DNA from: an uncultured Chloroflexia bacterium
Lineage (GTDB): Bacteria; Chloroflexota; UBA6077; JACCZL01
Assembly (NCBI GenBank): GCA_963765765.1
Contig: CAVXYC010000007.1
Span: 32,001 to 96,000 of the forward strand
DNA length: 64,000 nt
Direction of reading: 5' to 3'
Within the stretch, counting starts at the first letter, position 1, and each line of letters begins with the position of its first letter. A model generated the notes under the pieces. It was not told where the DNA came from, made no database searches, and worked only from the letters and a program-made list of their open reading frames with translations. Below are positions 1,167 to 46,088 of the stretch, piece by piece. The translations under genes and the position numbers were made by a program.

Positions 1167-1865
1167 GTGGCCAAGGTGCTCGTCGTGGACGACGAACCAA
1201 ATCTACTGCACACGCTGCGGTACAACTTGAAACAGTCTGGTTATGACGTGGTCATGGCGGCCACCGGTGATGAGGCCATTACCGTTGCCAGCCACGAGCG
1301 TCCAGATATCGTCATTCTGGACGTGATGCTGCCCGGGGTAGATGGATTCGAGGTCTGCCGCCGAATTCGTGCGGACTCCGCGGTACCGATTCTGATGCTG
1401 ACCGCGCGCACCGAGGAGATTGACCGAATTGTAGGACTCGAAGTGGGCGCGGACGACTACTTGACCAAACCGTTCTCCACGCGGGAGCTGCTTGCGCGAG
1501 TCAAAGCCATGCTGCGTCGACGCGAGATGATTCGGCGCGAGCTCACGGAGGCGCCGGCGGGTTCGGAGCGATTGGTGAGTGGTGACCTCGAGCTCGACGT
1601 GGCCGCCCACCGAGTGATGTTGGGAGATAGAAGTGTGGCACTCAAGCCGCGCGAATTTGAGCTTCTGACGTTCCTGATGAGGAATCGCGGACACCTCTTC
1701 TCAGCCGAGCAGCTTCTGGAACAAGTCTGGGGCTACATCGACACTAGTGATCCACGCACGGTTCCAGTACACATCCGCAGCTTGCGCGAGAAGATCGAGG
1801 AGCAGCCATCCCAGCCGCGACGAATTGAGACGGTCCGCGGCGTCGGATACCGATTCGTCGCGTGA
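1167..1865 (+). CDS. phoB: OmpR/PhoB-family response regulator
   Basis: VLVVDDE, LDVMLPG, GADDYLTKPF, C-terminal wHTH ETVRGVGY; context pit and phoR. Confidence 0.9.
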   Translation: MAKVLVVDDEPNLLHTLRYNLKQSGYDVVMAATGDEAITVASHERPDIVILDVMLPGVDGFEVCRRIRADSAVPILMLTARTEEIDRIVGLEVGADDYLTKPFSTRELLARVKAMLRRREMIRRELTEAPAGSERLVSGDLELDVAAHRVMLGDRSVALKPREFELLTFLMRNRGHLFSAEQLLEQVWGYIDTSDPRTVPVHIRSLREKIEEQPSQPRRIETVRGVGYRFVA

Positions 1866-3676
1866 ACGCTCCACGCGGCATGCAGTGGCGCATTGCCCTG
1901 AGCTATGTCACGCTGCTGGCGGTGGTCATGCTGGTGCTGGGCGCGTATCTCGTCCGATTTCTGCGCGAGCAGGAGTTCCGAAACCTCGAGGCGCAGCTCA
2001 CCCGGGAAGCCCAGGTCGTCGCCGCGGACGCGGTCTATCGCCTGGCAATGGGCGGCCCTGAGGCGCTCGATCCTTTCGCCAAGCAAATTGGGGACGTGAC
2101 CGAGCTGCGCGTCACGCTCATCGCACTTGACGGCCGGGTGCTCGGTGACTCCGATGTAGACCCCGCGCTGACCGAAAACCACGCGAGTCGGCCAGAATTC
2201 GTCGACGCGCTCCGGACAGGCCTCGGCGAAACGCAGCGTCACAGCGCCACGGTTGATCGCGACTTGCTGTATTTGGCTGTGCCCATGCGGGACGGAGATC
2301 GCTTGATGGGCGTGGCTCGCGTGGCACTGCCCAGCGTCATGCTTGAGGCGTCCATCAATCGCGTGGTGGTTGCCGTTGCCGCTGCCCTCTTTGCCGCGGC
2401 GTTGCTCGCCGTGGCGCTCGCTATGATCATCGCGCGAGCCATTGCGTTGCCGATTCAAGCTCTGACCGCCTCGGCCCATCGCCTCGCCCAGGGACTTCCC
2501 CACCGGCCATTGCCGGTTCACGCCGGTGGAGAGGTTGGTGAGCTAGCGGCAACCTTTAACGACATGGCTGAACGCGTTCGCGACAACGTGCGATCGATCG
2601 AGCAGCAGCGGGCTCAGCTGGCAGCCGTGCTGGCCAACATTCCGGATGGCGTCGTCATGCTGGATGACGAAGGCACGATCATGCTCATGAACTCAGCGGC
2701 CAAGCGCCTCCTTCACGTGAGTGGAAAGACGGTGGATGGACATACGCTCATTGAAATAACTCGTGACCATGAGCTGTCTGATCTCGGACTCAGCGCCATT
2801 CGACTCCATGCTCCCACCCGGCCGACACTTATTGAGCACGGGTCCGGTGAAGCTCGTCGCTCAATTCAGGCCGTCGGTGCACCGCTGCCCTCCGAGGCGT
2901 CGCCCAGTGCCGCCGCGCTGGTCGTCCTGCAGGACGTCACCGAGCTGCGACGCACCGAGATGATGCGGCGCGATTTCGTTGCGAACGTCTCGCATGAGCT
3001 CAGAACGCCCGTCGCCTCCGTCAAGGCCATGGTAGAAACGCTGGAAGAAGGTGCCCTCGCGGACCCTGGCGCCGCTCGCGATTTCCTGGCCCGTATCCAC
3101 GTGGAAGTGGATGACCTGACGCGATTGATCGAGGAGCTGCTCGAGCTGAGCCGCATTGAATCGGGCCGCGTTCAACTTTCCCGCGAGCCGCACGATCTTC
3201 GAAACACCGTTCGATCGGCTCTCCAGCGCCTTCAGGCACCCGCTGAACGACAGGGCGTGACCTTGACTCAGTCTGATCATGCCCAGCCGGCAATTGCTCT
3301 CATTGACGATGAACGAATTCAGCAGGTGTTGATGAACCTGATTCACAACGCGATCAAGGTGACCGAGCCCGGTGGCACAGTAAACGTCTCGATCATGGCT
3401 ACCGAGAATCGGGTCCAGGTCATCATTCGTGATAACGGCATAGGTATCGACCGGCAGGATCTCGGTCGGCTCTTTGAGCGGTTTTACAAAGTGGACAAAT
3501 CCCGCTCCAGCGGTGGGACAGGCCTAGGTCTGGCCATCGCGAAGCATCTCACACAAGCACACGGTGGACGCATCTGGGCCGAGTCCGCGGGACGCGGCCA
3601 GGGAGCTACGTTCACAGTGGAGCTTCCAGCGATGCGCTTGGCCCCTGCCAGGCGGAAGGCGGCCGCGGCATCGTAG
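1862..3676 (+). CDS. phoR: PhoR-like sensor histidine kinase (HAMP-PAS-HisKA-HATPase)
   Basis: DFVANVSHELRTP, NLIHNAIK, DNGIGI, FERFYKVDKSRS, GTGLGLAIAKH; GTGA overlap with regulator. Confidence 0.9.
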   Translation: MNAPRGMQWRIALSYVTLLAVVMLVLGAYLVRFLREQEFRNLEAQLTREAQVVAADAVYRLAMGGPEALDPFAKQIGDVTELRVTLIALDGRVLGDSDVDPALTENHASRPEFVDALRTGLGETQRHSATVDRDLLYLAVPMRDGDRLMGVARVALPSVMLEASINRVVVAVAAALFAAALLAVALAMIIARAIALPIQALTASAHRLAQGLPHRPLPVHAGGEVGELAATFNDMAERVRDNVRSIEQQRAQLAAVLANIPDGVVMLDDEGTIMLMNSAAKRLLHVSGKTVDGHTLIEITRDHELSDLGLSAIRLHAPTRPTLIEHGSGEARRSIQAVGAPLPSEASPSAAALVVLQDVTELRRTEMMRRDFVANVSHELRTPVASVKAMVETLEEGALADPGAARDFLARIHVEVDDLTRLIEELLELSRIESGRVQLSREPHDLRNTVRSALQRLQAPAERQGVTLTQSDHAQPAIALIDDERIQQVLMNLIHNAIKVTEPGGTVNVSIMATENRVQVIIRDNGIGIDRQDLGRLFERFYKVDKSRSSGGTGLGLAIAKHLTQAHGGRIWAESAGRGQGATFTVELPAMRLAPARRKAAAAS

Positions 3677-3899
3677 CATCGCCCTTAGCGTAGATTCGGG
3701 GACGACCCCACCTCAGCCCTCCCGCGCGGCAGGGAGGAGCCGGATTCTCCGTTTTCTAAGACACGAGAGGGCTCGGTTTCGCCGAGTCCTCCTCTGGATC
3801 TCGAATTCAGTGCATCGACACCAGCTTCTCGAACGCCGCCCTAACGTACTATCCGCCACGACCCCTGGGAGCGCTGTCCGGCCGCACGCTTCCGCGCCA

Positions 3900-3927
3900 A
3901 GTTCCGATAACCCCCATTATCGGCACC
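3900..3927 (+). repeat. dif/Xer-like palindromic site 1
   Basis: AGTTCCGATAA-CCCCCA-TTATCGGCACC; 11-6-11 architecture, repeated three more times in the island. Confidence 0.75.
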
Positions 3928-4022
3928 GGTGCCTGCCTAGGGGCTCAGCGAAAGACTGGGCAGATTGCTCGAGCGAGCTCACTCTGCGTTGTGGCACCAC
4001 GCGGGCGTACACTAGCGCCATC

Positions 4023-5047
4023 ATGATGCCACTCGGTCCGCCGGCACCCGTCGCCGCTTCCTGAGGGGTGGCCTGTCCGTGGCCGGCCTCGGTCTGCTGG
4101 CCGGCTGCGGGCTGCTCCCTCCCCAGGCCCCAACCTCCGAGCGGGTGCGCCTGATCGGGGTCCTCGGCGACGTGCCTGGCGGGCGTTGGGACGCGTTCTG
4201 GGATGGACTGCGGGAGCTGGGCTGGGTCGAGGGCCGGAACCTCGCCGTGGAGTCCCGCTGGGCCGAGGAGGAGACACCCAACGGTATCGGGCCCTCGCGA
4301 CCGAGCTCGTCGAGCGGAAGGTCGAGCTGATTGTAGTAGGGGCCTCGGTGGTGGCGGTCGCCGCCAAGCAGGCGACCGCCACCGTCCCACTCGTGGCGAT
4401 CCTGGTTAGCGGGGAGGCAATCGAGAGCGGGCTCGTCGACAACATCGCGCGGCCCGGCGGGAACATCACTGGGATTGCCGGCATAAGCGGGTCGCAACTG
4501 GAAGGCAAGCAGCTGCAACTCTTGAAGGAAGCGGTCCCGCACGCCTCCCGTGTAGCCGTGCTCCGCGGGCAATCCCGAGCCTTCTTCGAGCTCAGAGCGC
4601 CGCGTGCGGGCGCTCCAGGAGGCCGCGCCCGGCCTCGGGGTACACCTTCACGTCGTCGCCGCGCCGAACATCAGCGGCCTCGACGACGCGTTCGCGGCCA
4701 TGTCCACAGCCGGCGCTGATGCCCTCAAGATTCTCAACCACACCCAGTTCGGGACTGCGTTGGGACGCATCGCCGAGTTAGCGCGCCAGTATCGGCTGCC
4801 GGCTATCAGCGAATATCCGGACTTCGCTCGGGCGGGAGGCTTGCTGGCCTATGGCTTGAGTCGAGCCGAGATCTACCGGAGTGCAGCACCGTACGTGGAC
4901 AAAATCCTGCGAGGTGCCCGCCCTGGCGACCTGCCGATGGAGCGGCCGACGGACTTCGAGTTCGTGATTAACGTCGGGACAGCGCAGGCCCTCGGTCTGA
5001 CGATTCCTCAGCCGCTCCTTGCTGAAGCGACCGAGCTGATCCAGTGA
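4023..5047 (+). CDS. ABC transporter substrate-binding protein (ABC_sub_bind type), lipoprotein; frameshifted
   Basis: Pieces 4079-4330, 4186-4719, 4604-5047 join up: RRRFL..GLLAGC signal, GLRELGWVEGRNL, LVDNIARPGGNITG, GGLLAYG, YVDKILRGARPGDLPMERPT. Start approximate. Confidence 0.85.
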
Positions 5048-5152
5048 CCTCGTTCCAGTCCGGACTAACCGAGATCATCCATGAGGCGCATGCCTGATCC
5101 GCGCCGAAGCGGGCGGTATGGGCGTCGGGAAATGAGCTATCCACGCATCATT

Positions 5153-5180
5153 CGTTCCGATAACCCCCATTACCAGAACC
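5153..5180 (+). repeat. dif/Xer-like site 2
   Basis: CGTTCCGATAA-CCCCCA-TTACCAGAACC. Confidence 0.7.
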
Positions 5181-5233
5181 GCCGGATCCTGTAGCCCCTA
5201 TTACGAGACCAACTTGGCTGCAGCCCGTCATAG

Positions 5234-5872
5234 CTAAACGCGACAAAGCAGGGTCAACGACGCCAGAAGCAATTTGACTCGGCCCTGGATGTCATCTCGG
5301 ATCTCGCGTACCTGCTCGATTGGCAATCCTTCGGGATCGGCAATCTCCCAATCTTCGTAGCGCTTGAACGGGTACACCGGGCAGGCATCGCCGCACCCCA
5401 TCGTGACGATCACGTCGGCCACCTGGACGACTTCGTCCACCAATGGCTTCGGAAACTCGCGCGACAGGTCGAGCCCTACTTCAGACATAGCGCGGACCAC
5501 CACGGCATCGAGCTCCTCGGCGGGGGTGCTGCCAGCAGAATGCACACCCACGACTCCGTTGCTTAGATCGCGCAGAAAGGCCGCGGCCATCTGGGACCTA
5601 CCGGCGTTGCGGCTGCAGATGAACAGCACGTCGGCGCTTTCTTTCTCAAGAGGCTTCGCAAGACTTACGAGCGCTTTCAGCCGTTCGCGCGTGAAGCGGT
5701 AGACGAACATAGGGACGTAGTTCACGATCCGAACTTGTCCCAGGCATCTCTGGGACTCATAAGCACATTGTTCGATGGTCTCTTCCGAGAATGTCCCTCG
5801 AAATTCGTATGACAACCGCTCAATCTCCGCCTGGATCGCACGCTCGAGATGGAATTGGAACGGCTCGTTCAT
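5234..5872 (-). CDS. arsC: LMW-PTP-type arsenate reductase with N-terminal three-helix dimerisation domain
   Basis: CSRNAGRSQMA P-loop, TMGCGDACP, WEIADP; N-terminal extension like actinobacterial ArsC1'. Confidence 0.9.
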   Translation of the reverse strand: MNEPFQFHLERAIQAEIERLSYEFRGTFSEETIEQCAYESQRCLGQVRIVNYVPMFVYRFTRERLKALVSLAKPLEKESADVLFICSRNAGRSQMAAAFLRDLSNGVVGVHSAGSTPAEELDAVVVRAMSEVGLDLSREFPKPLVDEVVQVADVIVTMGCGDACPVYPFKRYEDWEIADPEGLPIEQVREIRDDIQGRVKLLLASLTLLCRV

Positions 5873-5926
5873 CGTTCCGTCCTCCCGCCGAGACACTTCG
5901 GCAAGCAGCCCTTCACTCCCATGGCA

Positions 5927-6351
5927 TCACTCCGACCCCAGAAACTCATCCGTGATCCGCTGGCGGATGGCATCGCGAACAGCGCGGTACATCTGCATCT
6001 GCTCCGCTTCGTTTCCCGTCGCTTTTGACGGATCCGGAAAGCTCCAGTGCAGTCGTCGCTTGGCGCCGAAAAACACGGGCAGGCCTCGTTGGCCTGATCG
6101 CACACCGTGATTACCGCGTCGAATGGCTGGTCGAGATAGCGGTCGAGTGTCTTGCTCTCCTGAGCGCTGATGTCGATATCCAGCTCGCCCATGGCCTTGA
6201 TGGCCAGCGGTCGCACGCGCGTGGCTTCCGTCCCCGCGGAATACACGTCAAACTGCTCCCCGCCGAGTCCTCGCAGGAGCCCCTCGGCCATCTGGGAGCG
6301 CGCCGAATTGTGGGTGCAGAGAAAGAGCACACGCTGTTTGGTACTCATCAT
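5927..6351 (-). CDS. arsC: LMW-PTP-type (thioredoxin-coupled) arsenate reductase; one frameshift near 6070
   Basis: [24 protein letters not shown], then in shifted frame [10 protein letters not shown]. Confidence 0.88.
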
Positions 6352-6383
6352 GGCTCACCTCCGTTCGTGACTCTGAACCGCGC

Positions 6384-7241
6384 CTATGCTGCGCGGATTG
6401 CATTGAGCTCATCGGTTCCTCCATTGCCTCGTCCGCCGTATGCGGCAGGAGCGATCTGATTCCGTACTGGTAGAGAGCTGCCCCCGCTACGGCCCCTAGA
6501 CATGGGCCCACAAGGTAGATCCAGAACCCGCCGCGGGGGCCAGGAATCGCGATGCTGCCAAATCCCACGGCCCAGGCGACCAGCCGGGGGCCAAGATCGC
6601 GGGCTGGATTCCATCCCGCCTGGGTGATGGGCGCAAAGAGGCAGATCAACAACGCCACTGTGAAGCCGATGAAGAACGGCACCATGCCCTCCGGCGTGAC
6701 GCGGTTCTTTGGATCCGTAAGGGCGAAGATCACCAACACCAGAATCGCCGTTCCGAATGCTTCCACAAGCATCGCCTCGAGCGGCGATGTCAACGCCTGG
6801 GCGTCGAGGCCCGTGCCGAAGATTGCTGGATTCGGGAAGTACTGGCCAAAGATCATCGCCGCGCGCTCGCTGCCTGGCGCTCCGCGGGTGAGCCCCTCCT
6901 TGGCCTCGAAACGCGCAAGGATACGGCCCCCAGACAACGAAAACAACCAGTCCGGCGGCGATGGCGCCCACGAACTGCGCGAGCCAGTACGGAAGCATCC
7001 GTCGGGCCGGGAAATCATCGCGACGGAATAGCGCAACTGCCAGCGTCACCGCCGGATTCAAATGAGCGCCCGAAAGCGTGGCTGAGCAATAGATCGCCAG
7101 GGACACGCCAAAGCCCCAGACAACGGCCACCTGCCACAACCCCTGGAGCGCTCCCGTGAGCACGGCCGTGGCCACGGAGCCGATCCCGAACAAAACCATC
7201 AGAAAGGTGCCCAGGCACTCGCCTGTCAGCGCGGCTCGCAT
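6384..7241 (-). CDS. MIP-family aquaglyceroporin (GlpF/AqpS-like); frameshifted
   Basis: SGAHLNPAVT and WNPARDLGPRL NPA motifs split over ORFs 6384-7241 and 6248-7036. Confidence 0.88.
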   Translation of the reverse strand: MRAALTGECLGTFLMVLFGIGSVATAVLTGALQGLWQVAVVWGFGVSLAIYCSATLSGAHLNPAVTLAVALFRRDDFPARRMLPYWLAQFVGAIAAGLVVFVVWGPYPCAFRGQGGAHPRSARQRARGDDLWPVLPESSNLRHGPRRPGVDIAARGDACGSIRNGDSGVGDLRPYGSKEPRHAGGHGAVLHRLHSGVVDLPLCAHHPGGMESSPRSWPPAGRLGRGIWQHRDSWPPRRVLDLPCGPMSRGRSGGSSLPVRNQIAPAAYGGRGNGGTDELNAIRAA

Positions 7242-7311
7242 AGCACCGACGCATCAATGGGTGTTGATATATGAGCCCGAAGAAAGCGGATGGCACTCAT
7301 TTGGTCTATAC

Positions 7312-7676
7312 CTACGAACAACCCGCCGGCCCGCACTCGGCCGTGCGGTCGCCAATCGTGGCTGGATCGAACAGCCCGGTCAGCTCCTGGTGGATCAGGG
7401 CGAGCCGGTCAGCGTCAACGCGGTAATAGATCCAGCGCTGATCCACTGGATCCCGTCGTCCTTGCACCAGGCCGGCATTGCGGAATTGGCGCAGGTGGTG
7501 GCTTATCAGATTCTGCGGCAGCTCGAGCTGTTCGGCCAGTTCACAGTTGCAGATTTCACCCGCCATAAGCGCGAGGAAAATACGGCGCCGCGTCGGATCG
7601 CTGATCAGCCGCAAGAACTCTGCGGAGGTCGGCGAAGCATCCGGCCGCTGGGTAGTGAGACGGGTAATTCAACCAT
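7312..7676 (-). CDS. arsR: ArsR/SmtB-family repressor (N-terminal frameshift)
   Basis: DPTRRRI, EICNCEL, ISHHLRQFRNAGLV, RWIYY; heads the ars operon. Confidence 0.88.
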
Positions 7677-7736
7677 TATTGATATTGTGCGCCGAATCAC
7701 AGCTAGAGTGCAAATCACCTGACCTTGACCGCTCTT

Positions 7737-7756
7737 ATATAGACATTCATCGATAT
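7737..7756. promoter_or_regulatory. Candidate ArsR operator
   Basis: Imperfect palindrome ATATAGA-CATTCA-TCGATAT in the AT-rich region upstream of arsR. Confidence 0.5.
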
Positions 7757-7797
7757 TATCCCCTTGAAGGCGGTATAATTTGACCAACAGGGACGCA

Positions 7798-8592
7798 TCA
7801 GCTACGCCATGCGACCTCTCTGATGACGTCTTCTACGCATCGGAGTTGTTCACGCAAACAATCGGGGACCGGCTCGTTCGGGGCAAGTCCCTCGCTGAAG
7901 GCTACGCCCAGCGTCACTATGGGCTTCATATCCACTTGGCCCCTGCTACCGAACTGAAACAGCAGTTCTGGTGTATTCAGCTTGAGCGGTCCTCCGGGAT
8001 GGACATACTCCCAGTCCGGGAGGATGGCGGCTCCATCGTGGCCGACAGCGAGGTTTTCAAGATCGATGACCGCCAGATTCAGATTCTTGTGCTTGTCGTC
8101 GATGTCCATCGAGTGAAGCTGGGCGAGTCGTTCTCGGCTGGGCAGGAAAGCATCCGCATCGGAAAACTCTTGATACGGCTGCAAGCTCTCGATGAATGCT
8201 TGTACGGCATCGGGAAGCAAGCGGACCGCGTACTTGCCGCATGTTCGTTGCAGGGCACCCTTCTTGTCCCGTTTCTCCCAATTACCTTTGTGGGACAGGA
8301 TTGGAAACGCTGTCCACTCGGGGGCAGATTCCCGCCTGCTCGAAATTTCGTAGACGATGTGATCCAGAGCGGATCGCATGTTGTGGACGGCATCGCCGGC
8401 GGCCAGAGCGATGTGATCGGGCAGTTCCTCCGAGAGCTTGATCCACACGCGCAATTTCCCCGGCTCACTCTCGGTATCCGGGATGATTTGGCAGGGTTCT
8501 CCTTGGATGAACTCGGTGGCTGCGGTTACCGCGTCCGTGAAGTGCTTGTATGCCCGATTGACCTTGAGTCGCCACGAAGGTACGGTGCTCAT
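7798..8592 (-). CDS. Hypothetical protein
   Basis: 264-aa ORF with GDAVHNMRSALDH and DIDDKHK motifs; globular, protein-like composition. Confidence 0.7.
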   Translation of the reverse strand: MSTVPSWRLKVNRAYKHFTDAVTAATEFIQGEPCQIIPDTESEPGKLRVWIKLSEELPDHIALAAGDAVHNMRSALDHIVYEISSRRESAPEWTAFPILSHKGNWEKRDKKGALQRTCGKYAVRLLPDAVQAFIESLQPYQEFSDADAFLPSRERLAQLHSMDIDDKHKNLNLAVIDLENLAVGHDGAAILPDWEYVHPGGPLKLNTPELLFQFGSRGQVDMKPIVTLGVAFSEGLAPNEPVPDCLREQLRCVEDVIREVAWRS

Positions 8593-8633
8593 GCTTTGAT
8601 GTGTCTCGCATCGTGAACGGGGTGGAGTTTGCG

Positions 8634-8918
8634 ATGTCCCAGCAAGTCATAGTGTATTCACAACCGGGTTGAATGTTCTGTAACAAGGTGAAAGAGTTTC
8701 TTCCCAACGAGGCGTGAATTACGTTGAACGAAACGTCGCGGAAGATGAGCAGGCGCTGGAAGAGCTGACGGCGCTTGGCTATATGACGACTCCGGTGGTG
8801 AAAAATCGACGACCACTTAGTGATCGGCTTCGATCGTGCTCGTCTCGAGGAATTGCTCGCTAAGAGGGCTTCCCTCGCTTTCTGTGGCGGTCGCGGTCGT
8901 GGTCGCGACAGATCGTAG
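8634..8918 (+). CDS. Glutaredoxin/NrdH-like redoxin with in-frame UGA (probable selenocysteine, UxxC); absent from ORF track
   Basis: GGAG RBS (8624-8627), then MSQQVIVYSQPG[TGA 8670-8672]MFCNKVKEFL..RGVNYVERNVAEDEQALEEL..LGYMTTPVV.IDDHLVIGFDRARLEELL. Two compensating homopolymer indels (~8702, ~8805). True stop may be near 8863. Confidence 0.8.
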
Positions 8919-8989
8919 TCTCCAAAACGGAAGCATCTAATTTCTCTGTCATCCAACTATCCGCGCCTGTCGAATACTTACTGTCCGCG

Positions 8990-9194
8990 CCGCCGTACGC
9001 GGCATACACTCGTCCGAAGTCGGGTCGGACTGGAATGTCGGGATGACTCCGTAGGCGACCAGTACCATGGCCCCTATAAGCCCAAAAGGCCATGGGCGTC
9101 CTTCCCGCAACCACTGCCACACCAGCCAGCCGCCGCCGATTTCCGCGAGGCCCGCCAGCGCGAAGAGCGCCAGGGCGCGGGCAATGTCAGGCAT
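8990..9194 (-). pseudogene. ynfA: YnfA/UPF0060 small membrane protein, 3'-truncated
   Basis: [23 protein letters not shown]...[10 protein letters not shown], then similarity stops. Confidence 0.75.
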
Positions 9195-9592
9195 GGTGGC
9201 CGAGCTGCTGCATGCGGTCCCAGGTGTCTTCCAGGCTCCAAACCTCTGATAAGCGCCCGTCCAGCACGCGGAAGATGAAGATTTCGTGCACTCGCTCCAT
9301 GCGCTTGCCCGTCGCAGGCTGGCCGATGAATGGTCCCCGCCTGGGTCCCCGAGCATGTGCAATGGGCCACGACCCGATCGCCTTCCACGATGAGTTCGAC
9401 GATGTCCTGACGCCAATCTGGAAACGCTTGAAGGAATTCGGTAAACGCGTCTCTGAAACGGTCTGCAAGCGCCGGCGCGCATAGTTCCTCGAGCACTTCG
9501 AATCGTCGCTCGTTCATTGCCTCCTGAACCAAGCGGCGGACAAGGGCCTTATTTGACTCGGTTTCCAACATCTCTCGCTCAGGAGTGTTCAT
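9187..9592 (-). CDS. SnoaL-like ester cyclase (NTF2 fold); frameshifted
   Basis: NKALVRR, AFPDW, IVEGDRV, SGT..G.F.GQPATGK. Confidence 0.8.
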
Positions 9593-9623
9593 GCGCCTAT
9601 TGTTGCCTATAGCTACTGTGGTT

Positions 9624-9651
9624 CGTTCCGATAACCCCCATTATCGCAACG
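9624..9651 (+). repeat. dif/Xer-like site 3
   Basis: CGTTCCGATAA-CCCCCA-TTATCGCAACG; shares 22 identical bp (TTCGTTCCGATAACCCCCATTA) with site 2. Confidence 0.75.
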
Positions 9652-9795
9652 TGTCGAGCGTGGGCGAGAGCTCGGCGTTCTTGCCTTGAGACCGTGAGCC
9701 AGATGAGCGGCGAGAGAGCCCACCCACGAGGCGCCTTGTTGGCGCGAAGTGGAGGGCCCTTCGTCGAGCTCGGTGGGGCTCGGGCGCGGTCGAGA

Positions 9796-10740
9796 TCAGG
9801 CCGAGAGGGCCTGGGCGGCGCTGCGGATCTTTCCGGGCCATCCCGCGTGATCTCTTCCACGAGCTTGACCACCTGCGGATGCTCCAGACCCGAGACCAGG
9901 AAGGTCCAGCGCCAAGCGTGCAGCGTCTTGGCGCTGATCTCCTGACGCTCGGACTCGGTGAACCCGCGCCCGGTCGCTGCCTTGTAGCGCGTCGATATTC
10001 AGGGCGATCTGCTGCTGCAGCAAGCCATCGATGGCACCACCCAGCTCGAGCACCTCGTCGATCGCTGCCTCGCGCTGCGCCAGCGGCATGTCCTCGACCA
10101 TCTCGGCGATGAGCATCGTGTCGATCTTGGCGTGCTGCGCCTCGTCCAGCCAGTGATGCCGCAGCAGGTCGCGGAACAGATCGTCGAGGTCGGTCTTGTT
10201 CCGGACATGCTCCGTGTAGTGGACCTGCACGAACCACTCGATGATGTTGATCAGGAGCAGCACCGCGAGGTCGGACTTGCTCCGGACCACCTCCGCGACC
10301 GCTTCGCGCCCGGGGATCAGCCCTGGGGTGGCGCCGAACTGCTCGGTGAACAGGTCGATCGAGCGACGGAACATCTCCTGGTGCTTCAGCTCCTCCTCCG
10401 AAAAGCGCAGGAGTGAGCGCTGTCGCACCTCGTCGCCGTAGGGATTCTGCAGAACTTCTTCGGTGACGGTAGGAACGATGAACTCCTCCACGAAGGCAAA
10501 GAGGTGGCAGTACGCGTTGCCCATGATCTGGTTCAGCATGCGCTTCTCATCGTCGTCGAGGCAGGCGATCGCGTCAACACCGCTGAGGCGGTCGGGCAAA
10601 AAGCGCTTCGAGAGATCGAAACGCCGACCGTTGAGGACCTCGTCTTCCTGCCAGGCAACCTTCTTCGAATTCTCGAGCACGTTCCCAAACGTGTAGTTGT
10701 GGGTGACCATCGGGGTCGGTGCCAGTGTGGTGGTTGTCAT
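9796..10740 (-). CDS. Ferritin-like diiron protein (AurF-like oxygenase family)
   Basis: FAFVEEFI, EELKH and HHWLDEAQH ExxH motifs; compensating frameshifts near C-terminus. Confidence 0.75.
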   Translation of the reverse strand: MTTTTLAPTPMVTHNYTFGNVLENSKKVAWQEDEVLNGRRFDLSKRFLPDRLSGVDAIACLDDDEKRMLNQIMGNAYCHLFAFVEEFIVPTVTEEVLQNPYGDEVRQRSLLRFSEEELKHQEMFRRSIDLFTEQFGATPGLIPGREAVAEVVRSKSDLAVLLLINIIEWFVQVHYTEHVRNKTDLDDLFRDLLRHHWLDEAQHAKIDTMLIAEMVEDMPLAQREAAIDEVLELGGAIDGLLQQQIALNIDALQGSDRARVHRVRASGDQRQDAARLALDLPGLGSGASAGGQARGRDHAGWPGKIRSAAQALSA

Positions 10741-11532
10741 GATGTGGATGTCCTTCCCTCGGGCCCGCGGCGCGGGACCGGAATGCGCTCGGTGGTCGTC
10801 ATGCCCTGTGCGATCGAATCGACGGCCGTGGTCGCCGATGAGTGGAGCCTCGCGGCGGGCGTCCAGGCCGTCGCGATGATTTCCTCCGGGATGAAGATCG
10901 GACGGTCCTGCCGGTCGCTCTCTTCGGTGGCGGCTCAACCGTTCGTCACCGTCACTCTAGGGAGCGTCCGTCTCTTACTCGTCCCCCGGCGCGTCCCCTA
11001 CCGTGTCCTTTGCGAGGAATTTCGAAATTGGTCTGGAATTCCTTGGTGAGGACCTTGACATCAAGTGGTTGCCATAGGGCCTGCTCCTTTCTGGCCAGTG
11101 GCCGGTCGCACGAGGTAGAGCCCGCCTTCCGGATTGGCGGCTGGTCGCGTACCTGACCGTGCGGCGCGCCCCGCGGTTCGGTTTTCCACGAGCCAACCCA
11201 GGGAACTCGCGTCCCCGGGGATTCCCTCCACGCGCGGCAAGCCAAGCAACTCCGTGGTCATGTCCGGGCGATCATCCGTCTCGTCGTCGGGCTCGCCCTG
11301 GTAGACGAACGGGACCCGCGATGGACGCAAAGGCGGCGCATGGCACACCGGAACGGCCATCTGGCCCGCGCGCTTCGACGCCGGCCCGCCACATCGGGCG
11401 CGGTTGGTGCGGCGCGGTCTCTCGGCGAGGCCCGAATCGACCGGCCGATGTGGCCCGAACGCGGCGACGAGCGTGCATCCATTTCGGGTCGGCGTCGTCT
11501 ACAGGAGCGAATCCGACCGAAAAGGAGCCACC

Positions 11533-12154
11533 ATGACCACACCGACGACCAGCCAGCCGACCAGAGAGTTGCAGATCGACTTCTTGTTCCTCGATCTCGA
11601 CACCTGCACCCGCTGCCGAGCCACCGATGCGACGTTGCTCGAGGCAATCGAGCGTACCCGCCCCGCTCTCGAGGCCGCCGGTGTGGTGGCCCGCGTGACC
11701 AAGACCCTCGTCTCGAACGAGGCGGCGGCACACGAGCTCGGATTCGTCAGCTCGCCCACGATCCGGTCGATGGCGTCGACATCGCCGACGAGCTGGTCGA
11801 GAGCGCCTGCGACACGTGCAGCGAGGCCTGTGGCTGTCCCGGTGGTGTCGACTCCAGGGACTGGGTCTACCGAGGCGAGCGGAGCACCGAGCCGCCGCTG
11901 GGTCTCATCGTCGAAGCGATCATGCGCCGAGCGCTCGGCGCCGACCCCGCCGGCTAACACACACCAGAGCCGGGACCCCGCCACGTGCCGACGAACCTCC
12001 GCCGGCTATTTCGCGGCTGCGGCGGCTGCCACACCGGCATCCGACTGTTGCCCACCGGGACGTCCAAGCCGACTGCTGCATGCCCGAGGACAAGGCCGCC
12101 TGTTGTGGCAGCGGGGCGGGGTCGTCATCCTGCGGCTGCGGCGCTGGGCACTGA
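11533..12154 (+). CDS. DUF2703-like Cys-rich thioredoxin-fold protein; frameshifted
   Basis: AAAGGAG RBS; IDFLFLDLDTCTRC, FVSSPTIRVDGVDI, ESACDTCSEACGC; C-terminal CC..CC..CGC tail. Confidence 0.75.
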
Positions 12155-12160
12155 AGTATC

Positions 12161-12806
12161 ATGAGTGCCATGATGGCCGCCCCCACGGAGCTGACTGATG
12201 CGCGCAACGAGGCGCTGCAGGCTATGCGCGCGCGACTGCGCGCATTCATTGAGCGCAGGGTCGGGGATCCCGATGTCGCCGAGGATCTCACGCAGGACGT
12301 GTTACTCCGCCTGCTGATGAACGACGACCGCCAGATCGAGAACCCCACAGCATGGCTCTACCGAGTCGCGCGAAATGCGATCATCGACCACTACCGCACT
12401 CGCCGCGACTGGCGTCCGCTTGAGGCCGATGCCCCGACCCCGCCGAGCCTGGCCGAGGACCCGTTTGCCGACGACTCGCAAGAGGCCAACGCGAGCTCGC
12501 GGGATGTCTGCGCTCGCTCGTGGACCAACTCGCCGAGCCCTACCGATCGGCGTTGATCGACGCTGACCTCACCGGACAGACCCAGGCCGAAGCCGCCCGA
12601 TCGGCGGGTGTGAGCGTCTCCGGGATGAAATCGCGGGTGCAACGTGGTCGCCGCTCGCTGCGCCAGCTCCTCACCGAGTGCTGCCGCGTGTACACCGGGC
12701 CCGCGGGCGGAATCAGGGGCTACGAACCGGCGCCGGCTGTGGAGAGTCGCCGCAGGGCGGGGGCGGCGTCCCGGGCCACTGCGGATGCGCGGGCACACCG
12801 CCGTGA
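12161..12806 (+). CDS. sigZ: ECF sigma factor, SigZ-like; frameshifted
   Basis: AEDLTQDV, AWLYRVARNAIIDHYR, SVSGMKSRVQRGR..L..CC. Confidence 0.8.
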
Positions 12807-13093
12807 GCCGAGGGAGCGCCGGCTAGGCCTTCCGGGGTCGAGCACGCCCGAGCGGCGGGATCGTCGGCGAGGCGTTCATCGAGCGCCGGGCGCACCGCCT
12901 GGGATCAAGTCGCGCCGGGGGCGGCTCGATTTGGAACGACTGGCAGCTTGCACCTTCCCAGCGTCGCGCGGTCAACGTGAGCTGCATCCGGAAGGCCATT
13001 CGCTCCTAGGCACCCGGCGTCGATCCGGACTGAGCATCAGGGCCATCGGGCGTGACCGCAACGCCCATCGACCCACCAGAGACTTTTGAAACA

Positions 13094-13121
13094 GGGTCCG
13101 ATAATCCCCATTCTCGGAACT
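13094..13121 (+). repeat. dif/Xer-like site 4
   Basis: GGGTCCGATAA-TCCCCA-TTCTCGGAACT. Confidence 0.7.
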
Positions 13122-13350
13122 ACCCGCCAATGATTCGATCTCGGAGTCGATCTTCGTTGGTTCCAGATGTGGCCCGCGACCGCGGTTATCGGAACCGATT
13201 TGGACCAGACTATAGGGCTTGACAACACCGCTCCTCCGCCGGCCGCCCTGTTCCAGCCACTCCGGAGCGGACCAGGTGCTGTCTCTCCAACGCCACCGTC
13301 ACCTGGAATGGGAGACACGTGGGATATCCCGGCATATCACCGGACAATAC

Positions 13351-13511: not shown

Positions 13512-13572
13512 CGTGCATCCATACCCTGGACAGGTCGGCATTCGACCGGCGTGTGAGGAGGGGTACCACAAT

Positions 13573-15520
13573 ATGTCCGGGAAGCAACAAAAGCCGGCAG
13601 CACTCGAGACAACGACGAACACCTTTCACGACATCATGGAGCGGCGGGTCAGCCGCCGCGGCATTCTGCGGGGCACCGCGGCATTGGCCGCCCTGGCGGT
13701 AACCGGGCCAGTCATCGGCAACGCTTCGTCCGCGTCGGCTCAGGGAAGTGTTCAACCGAGCATCGCCGCCCAGCTCGGCGGGCTCACATTCACGCCCGTT
13801 CCACTTGGCACCGCGGATGAGATCGTGACGCCGCCGGGATTCAGATCCAAGCCGCTCCTTCGCTGGGGTGACCCCATTCTCCCCAATGGCGCGGCGTTCG
13901 ATCCGTCGGCTGTGTCGGCGGCGGCGCAGGCTACGCAGTTCGGCTACAACAACGATTTCCTGATGTTCATGCCGCTGCCACAGGGCTCGAACACGCCGCA
14001 TCATGGTCTTCTCTGGGTAAATCACGAGTACACAAATCCGGAGCTGATGTTCGTGGGGTACGACAAGACCAACCCACAACCAAGTCAGGAGATTGTGGAT
14101 GCCGAGCTGGCTGCCCATGGTGGCTCTGTCGTGGAGATCGCCCGCGACGAGCGAGGAGAGTGGGGCATTCGGCAGAGCTCGATGTTGAACCGCCGCATCA
14201 CCGGCATAACGCCAGTCGGATTCACCGGGCCGGTTGCAGGCCACGAGTGGCTCAAGACTAGCGCTGACCCTACAGGTACAACGGCCATGGGCACGCTGAA
14301 CAACTGCGGAGGCGGGCTAGACTCCCTGGGGCACCATCTTGACCGCGGAAGAAAACTTCCATCAGTACTTCTCGAACGTGAGCAACCTGCCAGATACTGA
14401 CCCGCGCAAGGCCGTCCATACTCGCTATCGTCTGCCCGCTGCGGACTCGGAGCGGCACTGGGAGCAGGTCTACGATCGATTCGACGTGTCGAAGGAGCCC
14501 AACGAGCCGTTTCGCTACGGGTATATCGTCGAGATCGATCCCTACAATCCGAATTCAGCCGCACGTAAGCACACAGCGCTCGGCCGTTTCCTCCACGAGG
14601 CGGCTACCACGGTCATCGCGCCAAATGGGAAGGCTGTGGTCTACAGTGGCGATGACGAGCGCTTCGAGTCGGTCTACAAGTTCGTCAGCGCCGGCACGTA
14701 CGATCCGAACAATCGCGCCGCGAACATGAACTTGCTGACCGAGGGCACACTCTACGTGGCCCGCTTCAACGAGGATGGAACTGGCCAATGGCTTCCACTG
14801 GTTTACGGTGAAGGTCCACTGACGGAAGCTAACGGCTTCACGTCACAAGCAGACGTTCTCATCAAGACGCGCCTAGCGGCTGAGCTTGTCGGAGCCACCA
14901 AGATGGACCGACCAGAGGACATCGAGACGAACCCGGTCAATGGCAAGCTCTACATGGCGATGACCAACAATAACCTTCGTGGCCAGGAGGGGCGGCCCGC
15001 GCCTGACCGAGCCAACCCGCGCGCGGACAATCGCTGGGGCCACATCATTGAAGCCACCGAGTCCAACAACGATGCGTCGGCCACGACATTTATGTGGGAC
15101 ATCTTTATGCTCTGCGGCGAGAACACAAACGAGTCCACCTACTTCGCAGGCTACCCAAGGGAGCAGGTGAGCTCGATCAGCGCGCCGGACAACATCACCT
15201 TTGACGCGGCTGGGAACCTCTGGATTGCCACAGACGGGCAACCGTCCGCGATCAAGGCGAATGACGGAATCTACGCGGTTCCCACTTCCGGCCCAGAGCG
15301 CGGATTTGTACGGCAATTCATGTCCGGCGTCCTGGGCGCGGAAATGGCGAGCCTCGCGTTCAATCCTGACAGCACGGCGATCTTCGTATCCGTCCAACAT
15401 CCCGGTGAAGGCGGAACGCTAGAGGCGCCGGTGAGTTGGTGGCCCGATGGTGGCCAGCCGCCCCGTCCAAGCGTCGTGGTCGCCTGGTCCGAGACAGGAA
15501 AGCTGATCGGCGAAGCTTAG
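13573..15520 (+). CDS. phoX: PhoX-family alkaline phosphatase, Tat-exported; one frameshift near 14320
   Basis: SRRGIL Tat signal, QFGYNNDF, LWVNHEY, GTLNNCGGG, AEENF, ALGRFLHE, MDRPED, PDNITFD, VQHPGE. Confidence 0.92.
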
Positions 15521-45968: not shown

Positions 45969-46088
45969 GGATGAAGCCCCCGTCATGTGCGTGCGCTGCG
46001 AGTAGCAATGTACCGCGTTCTACATCACGGTGGGTCAGAAATCGAACTACCTTATAGTGAGCAACGGATCACACCAGGAGCAGAAGGC

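Follow-up and report, generated by a model that had tools for sequence, protein, structure and literature searches.

Four short palindromic sites, all in one orientation, divide an island of unrelated genes between phoR and phoX in the genome of an uncultured Chloroflexia bacterium, and they belong to a genome-wide family with the same arms as attA, the site of the tyrosine recombinase IntA of Rhizobium etli. The 16 arm bases are conserved in Alphaproteobacteria, Poribacteria, this soil bacterium and probable gut phages. From comparison of sequences, the sites are probably core attachment (att) sites, recombined by a simple Cre-like enzyme of IntA type that would have stacked the modules between them. 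The DNA analysed, called the window here, is a stretch of 64,000 nucleotides (G000:C7:32001-96000) from an assembly of 6.49 Mb in 33 contigs that is 91.84% complete.

Four sites in the phoR-phoX island

A previous reading of this DNA, made from its letters and hereafter the sequence-only reading, had described four 28-bp sequences starting at 3900, 5153, 9624 and 13094. They are present letter for letter. The coordinates give the inter-site blocks of 1225, 4443 and 3442 bp that it had reported, and the C-rich spacer is on the plus strand in 4 of 4 sites, which bears out the single orientation that it had assigned to them.

Site 1, 3900-3927, plus strand: aGT-TCCGATAA-CCCCCA-TTATCGGC-acc; 224 bp past the phoR stop
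Site 2, 5153-5180, plus strand: cGT-TCCGATAA-CCCCCA-TTACCAGA-acc
Site 3, 9624-9651, plus strand: cGT-TCCGATAA-CCCCCA-TTATCGCA-acg
Site 4 (terminal), 13094-13121, plus strand: gGG-TCCGATAA-TCCCCA-TTCTCGGA-act

Each site is built of 8-bp inverted arms, TCCGATAA and TTATCGGA, often lengthened to GTTCCGATAA, and the consensus of those in the window is GT-TCCGATAA-YCCCCA-TTNYCNNA. Site 2 is flanked by convergent gene ends (the stop of an ABC transporter binding-protein gene at 5047 and that of a minus-strand LMWPc gene at 5234), and site 4 begins 5 bp past the stop codon of a sigma-factor gene. When the 64-kb window was searched for TCCGATAANNNNNNTTNYCR with at most one mismatch, 7 matches were obtained, namely the four sites, three of which also matched on the reverse strand; the number expected by chance is 0.15, and 0 of 100 shuffles reached 7. 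No further copy of the site was found in the window at this threshold. The statement that no full copy exists elsewhere therefore holds for the window but not for the genome, which contains a family of sites.

A family of sites in the genome

Over the whole genome the palindrome occurs 43 times at up to three mismatches, against 12 occurrences of the reversed control. From 66 loose matches at up to four mismatches, 36 sites with a six-base spacer were kept by curation and 30 were dropped, the latter mostly intragenic and with spacers that are not C-rich; C27:51249, with 4 mismatches, was retained because its flank matches that of another site. About nine additional sites have a spacer of 5 or 7 bases, lengths which may be homopolymer errors, the spacer being a run of C. 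The genome scan that the sequence-only reading had recommended thus yields about 45 sites, nearly all in arrays of one orientation.

Arms are perfect (16 of 16 bases) in eight sites of the genome, and 34 of the 36 curated sites are intergenic by our own rough gene calls. All neighbouring pairs at most 12 kb apart (20/20) are direct repeats; the orientation varies between arrays on one contig. The commonest spacers are CCCCCA (14/36) and TCCCCA (4/36), with the remainder in smaller groups such as YCCGCC. The phoR-phoX island is one of about a dozen such arrays, others being C7:229-3978, C23:452366-458934 (nine sites in 6.5 kb), C27:45975-51270, C27:84343-88201, C1:183142-193702 and one on C32. 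Modules may be single genes (phosphofructokinase, SnoaL-like proteins and numerous ABC_sub_bind genes), small operons (cydAB; an Rce1-like protein with a response regulator and a GAF-LuxR protein) or larger stretches. The earlier description of direct repeats bounding unrelated modules is thus supported by the orientation of neighbouring pairs and by the Pfam assignments of the cargo.

Some ten modules of 1.2 kb each contain an ABC_sub_bind gene and fall into two cassette families. Those of family A are 88-94% identical and have their gene in the direction of the spacer, and those of family B are 81-88% identical and have it against the spacer; a 68-bp leader to the right of the site is common to both families.

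Solute-binding genes of this kind (PF04392) are present in dozens of copies, many with 83-91% DNA identity and only some flanked by sites (examples are C17:123-131k, C1:2-12k, C1:275-281k, C6:37-38k and C23:67k). A second palindrome, TTCCTGTAA-N6-TTCYCGGRA, stands 7-10 bp upstream of some TCCGATAA sites and makes double sites of them (C23:455222-455244, C23:456164-456187, and also to the left of C32:227973).

Loss of homology at site boundaries

In five cassettes homology begins at the right arm and extends rightward, the DNA to the left being unrelated; in five others it reaches as far as the left arm and is lost on the right. Cassette homology predicted a boundary near C27:47296, and a site with a 7-base spacer was found at C27:47295. 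The metagenome contig L058 (92% identity) tracks C27:45650-45997 through the site at 45975, diverges at the right end of that site, continues with a foreign module of ~0.9 kb and then resumes C27:88419-89285, so that 42 kb between two sites of C27 are replaced in L058 by the ~0.9-kb module. Breakpoints at the sites, which the sequence-only reading had proposed to look for, are thus seen both among paralogous modules and in L058.

At no more than one mismatch this genome has 24 sites, compared with 0-2 in each of 400 genomes of the phylum, among which 12 have any match. There are 0 sites in the genome of G001, which is of the same genus, and 0 matches in G006 (unpublished, among the relatives counted). 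Species-representative genomes gave 13 single matches with a pattern that was forced to the spacer NNCCCA and misses arrays with other spacers.

The phoR and phoX contigs of G001 both end in a 36-base sequence, with one base different, that is part of a long hairpin. If the two contigs are joined there, as we infer, the arrangement is consistent with phoR and phoX being separated in G001 by ~1 kb, with no island and no site seen. On that join, G001 would agree with the arrangement of phoR and phoX around one site, which the sequence-only reading had proposed to look for in relatives, in lacking the island but not in having a site. The hairpin in this spacer is long and perfect, with arms of ~55 bp, and both contigs end in it (L014:1-110 and L006:2860-2970; C471 and C244); it differs from the palindromic sites of this study.

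Public data include 11 soil or rhizosphere runs with shares of at most 0.27. Four soil runs (X1-X4) gave only contigs of 150-460 nt, some of them identical to the window, and one contig of X2 (3844-3997) spans site 1.

Identity of the arms to attA and linkage to recombinase genes

A full-text search for both arms located the paper that describes attA. According to that paper, IntA of R. etli needs an att sequence of 23 bp, in which two palindromic arms enclose a divergent centre; attA is TCCGATAAGCATTACTTATCGGA, and the enzyme performs integration as well as excision in vivo (PMC4928290). The 8+8 arm bases of the sites described here are the same as the arms of attA; within the window, 15/16, 14/16, 15/16 and 15/16 arm bases match in sites 1 to 4, respectively. 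On R. etli plasmid p42a, attA lies ~110 bp upstream of intA.

Homologs of IntA occur in 1768 plasmid records, and some of them also have a site just upstream of the gene. Such a site stands ~30 bp upstream of an IntA-like gene in Limimaricola variabilis, and GCCGATAA-N7-TTATCGGC stands ~40 bp upstream of a 38% identical homolog on a Paracoccus plasmid. Plasmid homologs from Afipia, Vibrio and Pseudonocardia (64%, 29% and 31% identical) had no site within ~600-700 bp upstream. When 85 site-bearing loci were grouped into 59 flank families, a tyrosine recombinase gene was present at no more than 2.4 kb in 9 of the 59, three of them IntA-like, Limimaricola included; metagenome contigs also have the site next to IntA/Cre-like genes. 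In Poribacteria at least one perfect-arm site was found in 12 of 31 genomes (controls 0), and in six of eight loci examined a perfect site precedes a gene for a recombinase of ~304 amino acids by 100-230 bp. The spacer beside IntA-like genes is 6 bp long in Limimaricola and Poribacteria and 7 bp in Paracoccus.

Six Poribacteria genomes (G435, G436, G438, G439, G442 and G445; L135-L139 and L141) have one perfect site each, often with a TTAACC-like spacer. This single site beside the enzyme gene recalls XerS/difSL, by analogy with which it could belong to a dimer-resolution system. Another arrangement was seen in the metagenome-assembled genome G415 of a Candidatus Poribacteria (C47:12082-40261; L123, L127 and L128), where nine sites with differing spacers, their arms perfect or nearly so, come after a gene for a Cre-like recombinase (12082-13023). 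Five of these sites lie 5-16 bp past a small plus-strand gene, and 7 of 10 cargo open reading frames (ORFs) have no Pfam family. The closest solved structure to the enzyme that heads this array is Cre (E 1e-9). By analogy we describe the layout of G415 as integron-like; its variable spacers would block ordinary double-strand exchange between its sites.

Human-gut contigs contain inverted copies of GCCGATAA-TGGGTA-TTATCGGA, 918 bp apart, inside a tail-fibre-like reading frame in which the site translates as ...PIMGIIGSF.... The intervening segment is flipped in some contigs with the flanks collinear (L071:749-1688 versus L073:9114-10053; also L068, L091, L099, L108 and L121). This pair looks like an inversion switch for a phage tail fibre that uses a site of the IntA type. 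No recombinase was found in the parts of the contigs examined, and Pfam named no ORF there.

Recombinases of the genome

The sequence-only reading had noted that no recombinase is encoded in the window, and there is none. The list of tyrosine recombinases of the genome that it had called for comprises 22 matches to PF00589, and no intact, cognate IntA-like gene is among them. The top Xer-like gene, on C29, scores 268 bits with the XerD model. A frameshifted Xer-like gene on C30 lies ~220 bp from the perfect site C30:95085 and ends a two-site array (C30:97297 and C30:95085). We downgraded it as the cognate enzyme, since G001 has an ortholog (87%) but no site, neither in the ~290 bp of contig available upstream of that ortholog nor anywhere else in the genome. 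The C30 gene therefore seems to have been inherited with the chromosome, a cassette having landed next to it. Two phage-type integrases, C20:548503 and C1:184026, were set aside: they lie 1-2 kb from sites but are of the ordinary arm type, one of them beside a tRNA-like sequence. Two IntA-like remnants (C10:131817-132285 and C20:611815-612135) are 89% identical to each other and share the motif RDRALLLLG-AGA-RRSE; no site was found upstream of either. The enzyme that belongs to the sites must therefore be missing from the assembly, have been lost, or have given way to another recombinase.

Proposed mechanism and alternative explanations

If the sites are core sites of an IntA-type enzyme, each 8-bp arm would bind one monomer of a single recombinase, and the asymmetric 6-bp crossover region YCCCCA would set the direction of the site. 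The near-symmetric, homotypic arms, from which the sequence-only reading had likewise argued for a single tyrosine recombinase, agree with this reading. A circle with one site would integrate at a matching site and leave the insert between two direct copies; repeated integration would build a stack of modules with all sites in one direction, and recombination between direct sites would free a module as a circle. Serial integration would lead to uniform orientation within arrays and to breakpoints at sites, and likewise to the presence of one cassette family in many arrays and to a private, recent expansion in this genome. The active enzyme might come from the unassembled 8% of the genome or from a plasmid, or might be another recombinase; otherwise the arrays would be fossils. 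We infer that the arrays were built by recombination and suppose that the modules may still be mobile.

Several observations count against this interpretation. The sites have the form 8-6-8 (22 bp), compared with 8-7-8 (23 bp) in R. etli, and 22 of the 36 have a spacer other than CCCCCA, which would hinder full strand exchange. The assembly has no intact IntA-like recombinase: tblastn with IntA and the Poribacteria integrase gave nothing below E 0.1, and a profile of five IntA-like proteins returned generic Xer-like genes and two truncated fragments only. At least 18 of the 36 sites adjoin PF04392 genes, so their spread could partly reflect gene duplication. The comparison of the C23 array with G001 is uninformative, as the flanking genes are on different contigs with different neighbours, and no joint at any site was found in the 150-460-nt read contigs of X1-X4, which are too fragmentary to reveal junctions. 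Finally, the source is a metagenome-assembled genome with 6.85% contamination and numerous frameshifts.

Use of the sites as dif-like sequences by a host Xer protein (the XerD-like one of C29 or the Xer-like one of C30), with modules mobilised by Xer, would account for the inner ATAA-N6-TTAT within an 11-6-11 site and for the 6-bp spacer, both of which match the architecture of dif, and the C30 gene does close a small array and has a perfect site upstream. Known Xer systems that work with one recombinase and have their site next to its gene include XerS and XerH. We nevertheless think this explanation unlikely. The arms equal those of IntA attA and not a Xer site, there are about 45 copies and not one, none of them has a XerD-type arm, and the 0-2 sites in each of the 400 phylum genomes are not the conservation among relatives that dif would have; G001 lacks the site altogether, its 87% ortholog of the C30 gene included. 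A scan for a true dif with ATAA-N6-TTATG gave two candidates, of which the better is GTTACCGATAA-ACCCCG-TTATGACCAAG at C23:407793-407820. Among heterotypic dif-like sequences this one alone has a left arm resembling that of the sites; it occurs in 0 of 20 relatives, and C23 has no GC-skew maximum there. The sequence-only reading had also proposed to locate the island relative to the GC-skew terminus, and no switch in the sign of the skew was found within the window. Because the arms equal attA and the pairing of site and recombinase recurs widely, we call the site lox-like and have given up the dif/Xer label that it first received.

Two further explanations require no recombination at the sites. 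It is quite improbable, in our view, that the palindrome is a repeat of the repetitive extragenic palindromic (REP) or miniature inverted-repeat transposable element (MITE) kind that spread by transposition or duplication together with the ABC_sub_bind family and has no role in moving modules. Its 16 arm bases match a proven recombinase site, it bounds unrelated cargo (phosphofructokinase, cydAB and arsenic genes, for example), and a replication-strand bias would not explain why 20/20 pairs are direct while the orientation changes from array to array along one contig. Such a repeat would on the other hand be short, intergenic, multi-copy and lineage-specific, as the palindromes are; a composite unit of ~135 bp recurs seven times; and the PF04392 genes that adjoin at least 18 of 36 sites form a family of dozens of copies, many of them without sites. 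Three matches to Y1 transposases (PF01797) occur in the genome, as REP elements mobilised by a transposase might lead one to expect, but 0 of 3 is beside an array, and this version was rejected. Least probable is a role as operator of a single regulon, or as an RNA hairpin that terminates or stabilises transcripts. The palindrome is located in intergenic DNA, it often stands just upstream of a recombinase gene in other genomes, where it could serve autoregulation, and a T run comes after one copy in the gut contigs. We rejected both forms because the direction of the sites is independent of that of the genes (families A and B are opposite) and because of the placement of sites 2 and 4, between convergent ends and 5 bp past a stop codon; the cargo functions are also unrelated, and no Rfam family matched at E <=0.1. 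The motif is thus not seen at the promoters of one regulon, an arrangement that the sequence-only reading had named as telling against recombination.

Modules, flanking genes and the composite array end

The features of the island other than the four sites are listed below, with gene families from Pfam.

1167-3676, plus strand: left flank, phoB-like response regulator (1167-1865) and phoR-like histidine kinase (1862-3676)
3928-3995, plus strand: conserved leader of ~68 bp immediately right of site 1, common to ABC_sub_bind cassettes of both gene orientations
3928-5152, plus strand: module 1, 1225 bp, with one ABC_sub_bind (PF04392) gene (4186-5047) split by a frameshift
5181-9623, minus strand: module 2, 4443 bp, LMWPc/MIP/YnfA/SnoaL
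9652-13093, genes on both strands: module 3, 3442 bp
13160-13198, plus strand: long element, GGTTCCAGAT-N17-TTATCGGAACC, two site-like half-sites followed by a TTGACA-like box
13513-15520, plus strand: right flank, phoX alkaline phosphatase, with a frameshift near 14339-14400

Orthologs of both flanks are present in G001, 74% identical for phoB/phoR and 84% identical for phoX. Module 1 is a member of cassette family A and is 88-91% identical to C1:192519, C20:550709, C27:48704 and C7:229. Its leader is shared as right flank by five sites, and positions 1-68 match at 88-94% between cassettes of opposite gene direction. Module 2 contains two LMWPc (ArsC-type) phosphatases (5234-5896 and 5869-6351), a frameshifted MIP channel (6248-7241), ORFs with no family, a piece of YnfA within 8949-9482 and a SnoaL gene (9074-9592). 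When the island DNA was compared with five relatives, only the LMWPc/MIP part matched, at 68-72% DNA identity and in other genomic contexts. The genes of module 3 encode an AurF-like di-iron protein (9796-10938, minus), a frameshifted DUF2703 protein (11404-11957, plus) and a frameshifted sigma factor of the extracytoplasmic function (ECF) type (12161-13089, plus). Pfam thus confirms the unrelated cargo first ascribed to the three blocks, namely an ABC binding protein, arsenic and redox genes, and a diiron protein with DUF2703 and a sigma factor.

Reading frames are split in the window at 4604-4719 (ABC_sub_bind), 6248-7241 (MIP), 11404-11957 (DUF2703), 12520-12556 (sigma factor) and 14339-14400 (phoX), and splits occur throughout the genome, recombinase genes included, so that gene calls span just 78% of it. 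Because so many genes are split, the flanking phoX among them, the breaks are likely homopolymer indel errors of long-read assembly and not decay of the island; the same type of error may also account for the 5- and 7-base spacers.

Site 4 and the long element together form a composite unit of ~135 bp that closes the array of the window. The half-sites of the long element are about one helical turn further apart than the arms of a site. Six full copies of the element exist in the genome, three of which lie 62-76 bp beyond a terminal site. Eight composite units, seven from this genome and one from metagenome locus L120, align over ~135 bp, and in oriented coordinates the unit is at the same end of every array that has one. 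Other arrays close with a variant site, TCCGATAA-YCCGCC-TTCCCAGA. Our guess is that the split element of the composite end is an accessory or regulatory binding site.

Significance and comparison with known systems

The site type and the enzyme family are known from R. etli. In the main texts of a library of open-access papers, searches returned no account of IntA-type sites arrayed around modules, and likewise none of the composite end or of an integrase-headed array like that of G415. Among systems in which single genes are stacked behind a recombinase, integrons are, to our knowledge, the only one that is well understood, and the origin of their cassettes is an open question. We propose tentatively, and with less than even confidence, that there is a second route to cassette arrays that is independent of integrons, in which an IntA/Cre-like recombinase and a 22-bp lox-like site would capture circular modules serially, with a composite end closing the stacks, a recombinase heading the stack in Poribacteria and the same site serving tail-fibre inversion in gut phages. 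What the ~45 simple sites enclose are ordinary genes of metabolism and regulation, for instance those for phosphofructokinase, an ECF sigma factor, cytochrome bd oxidase and many solute-binding proteins, as well as arsenic genes. If recombination did build the arrays, any chromosomal stretch between two sites would become a mobile cassette, which is a testable model of cassette origin. The 16-base arm sequence can serve as a search key for such arrays, and natural lox-like sites with many spacer variants may aid genome engineering.

The arrays resemble those of integrons in that modules are stacked between recombinase sites of one orientation and some cassettes are paralogous; G415 adds to the likeness, with the recombinase gene at the head of its array and a site after each of the small, for the most part unannotated genes. 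They differ in the sites, since attC is a folded sequence of 57-141 bp with paired R and L boxes, whereas the sites here are, by inspection, palindromes of 22-28 bp of the double-strand type with one pair of arms each. Neither an attI nor a Pc promoter was identified here, and modules can hold several genes in either direction. Nor is an integron integrase present in the window, and the six recombinases tested scored 44-94 bits with TIGR02249 (cut-off 265) where listed and far below the cut-off of NF011946.

With dif, plasmid dif (pdif) modules and integrative mobile elements exploiting Xer (IMEX) the arrays share ATAA-N6-TTAT, the 6-bp spacer and site-bounded modules whose enzyme acts in trans. 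The arms of those sites are heterotypic, for XerC and XerD, whereas the arms here are homotypic. Acinetobacter pdif modules have flanking sites in alternating (inverted) orientation, in contrast to the direct orientation of 20/20 neighbouring pairs here. The dif site occurs once per replicon, at the replication terminus, and is conserved among relatives; the present sites are neither single-copy nor conserved.

Cre/loxP of phage P1 is alike in its inverted arms around an asymmetric spacer that sets direction, and in that direct repeats lead to excision and integration to direct repeats. Unlike the sites here, loxP has the form 13-8-13, is single-copy and serves maintenance of the plasmid prophage; we know of no natural lox arrays with cargo.

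The closest counterpart is IntA with attA and attD on plasmids p42a and p42d of R. etli CFN42, described by Hernandez-Tamayo et al. (2016) and reportedly also in their study of 2013. The arms are identical and homotypic, which suits a single recombinase, and enclose a short, asymmetric centre. One simple enzyme works in both directions, and in other genomes the site stands just upstream of the recombinase gene. R. etli has IntA, whereas this assembly is without an intact IntA-like gene and the system is known here from sequence. In R. etli there are two sites, one on each plasmid, which serve plasmid cointegration, whereas here ~45 chromosomal sites form same-orientation arrays around modules. 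The IntA system is thereby extended from a two-site device for plasmid cointegration to a widespread pair of site and recombinase.

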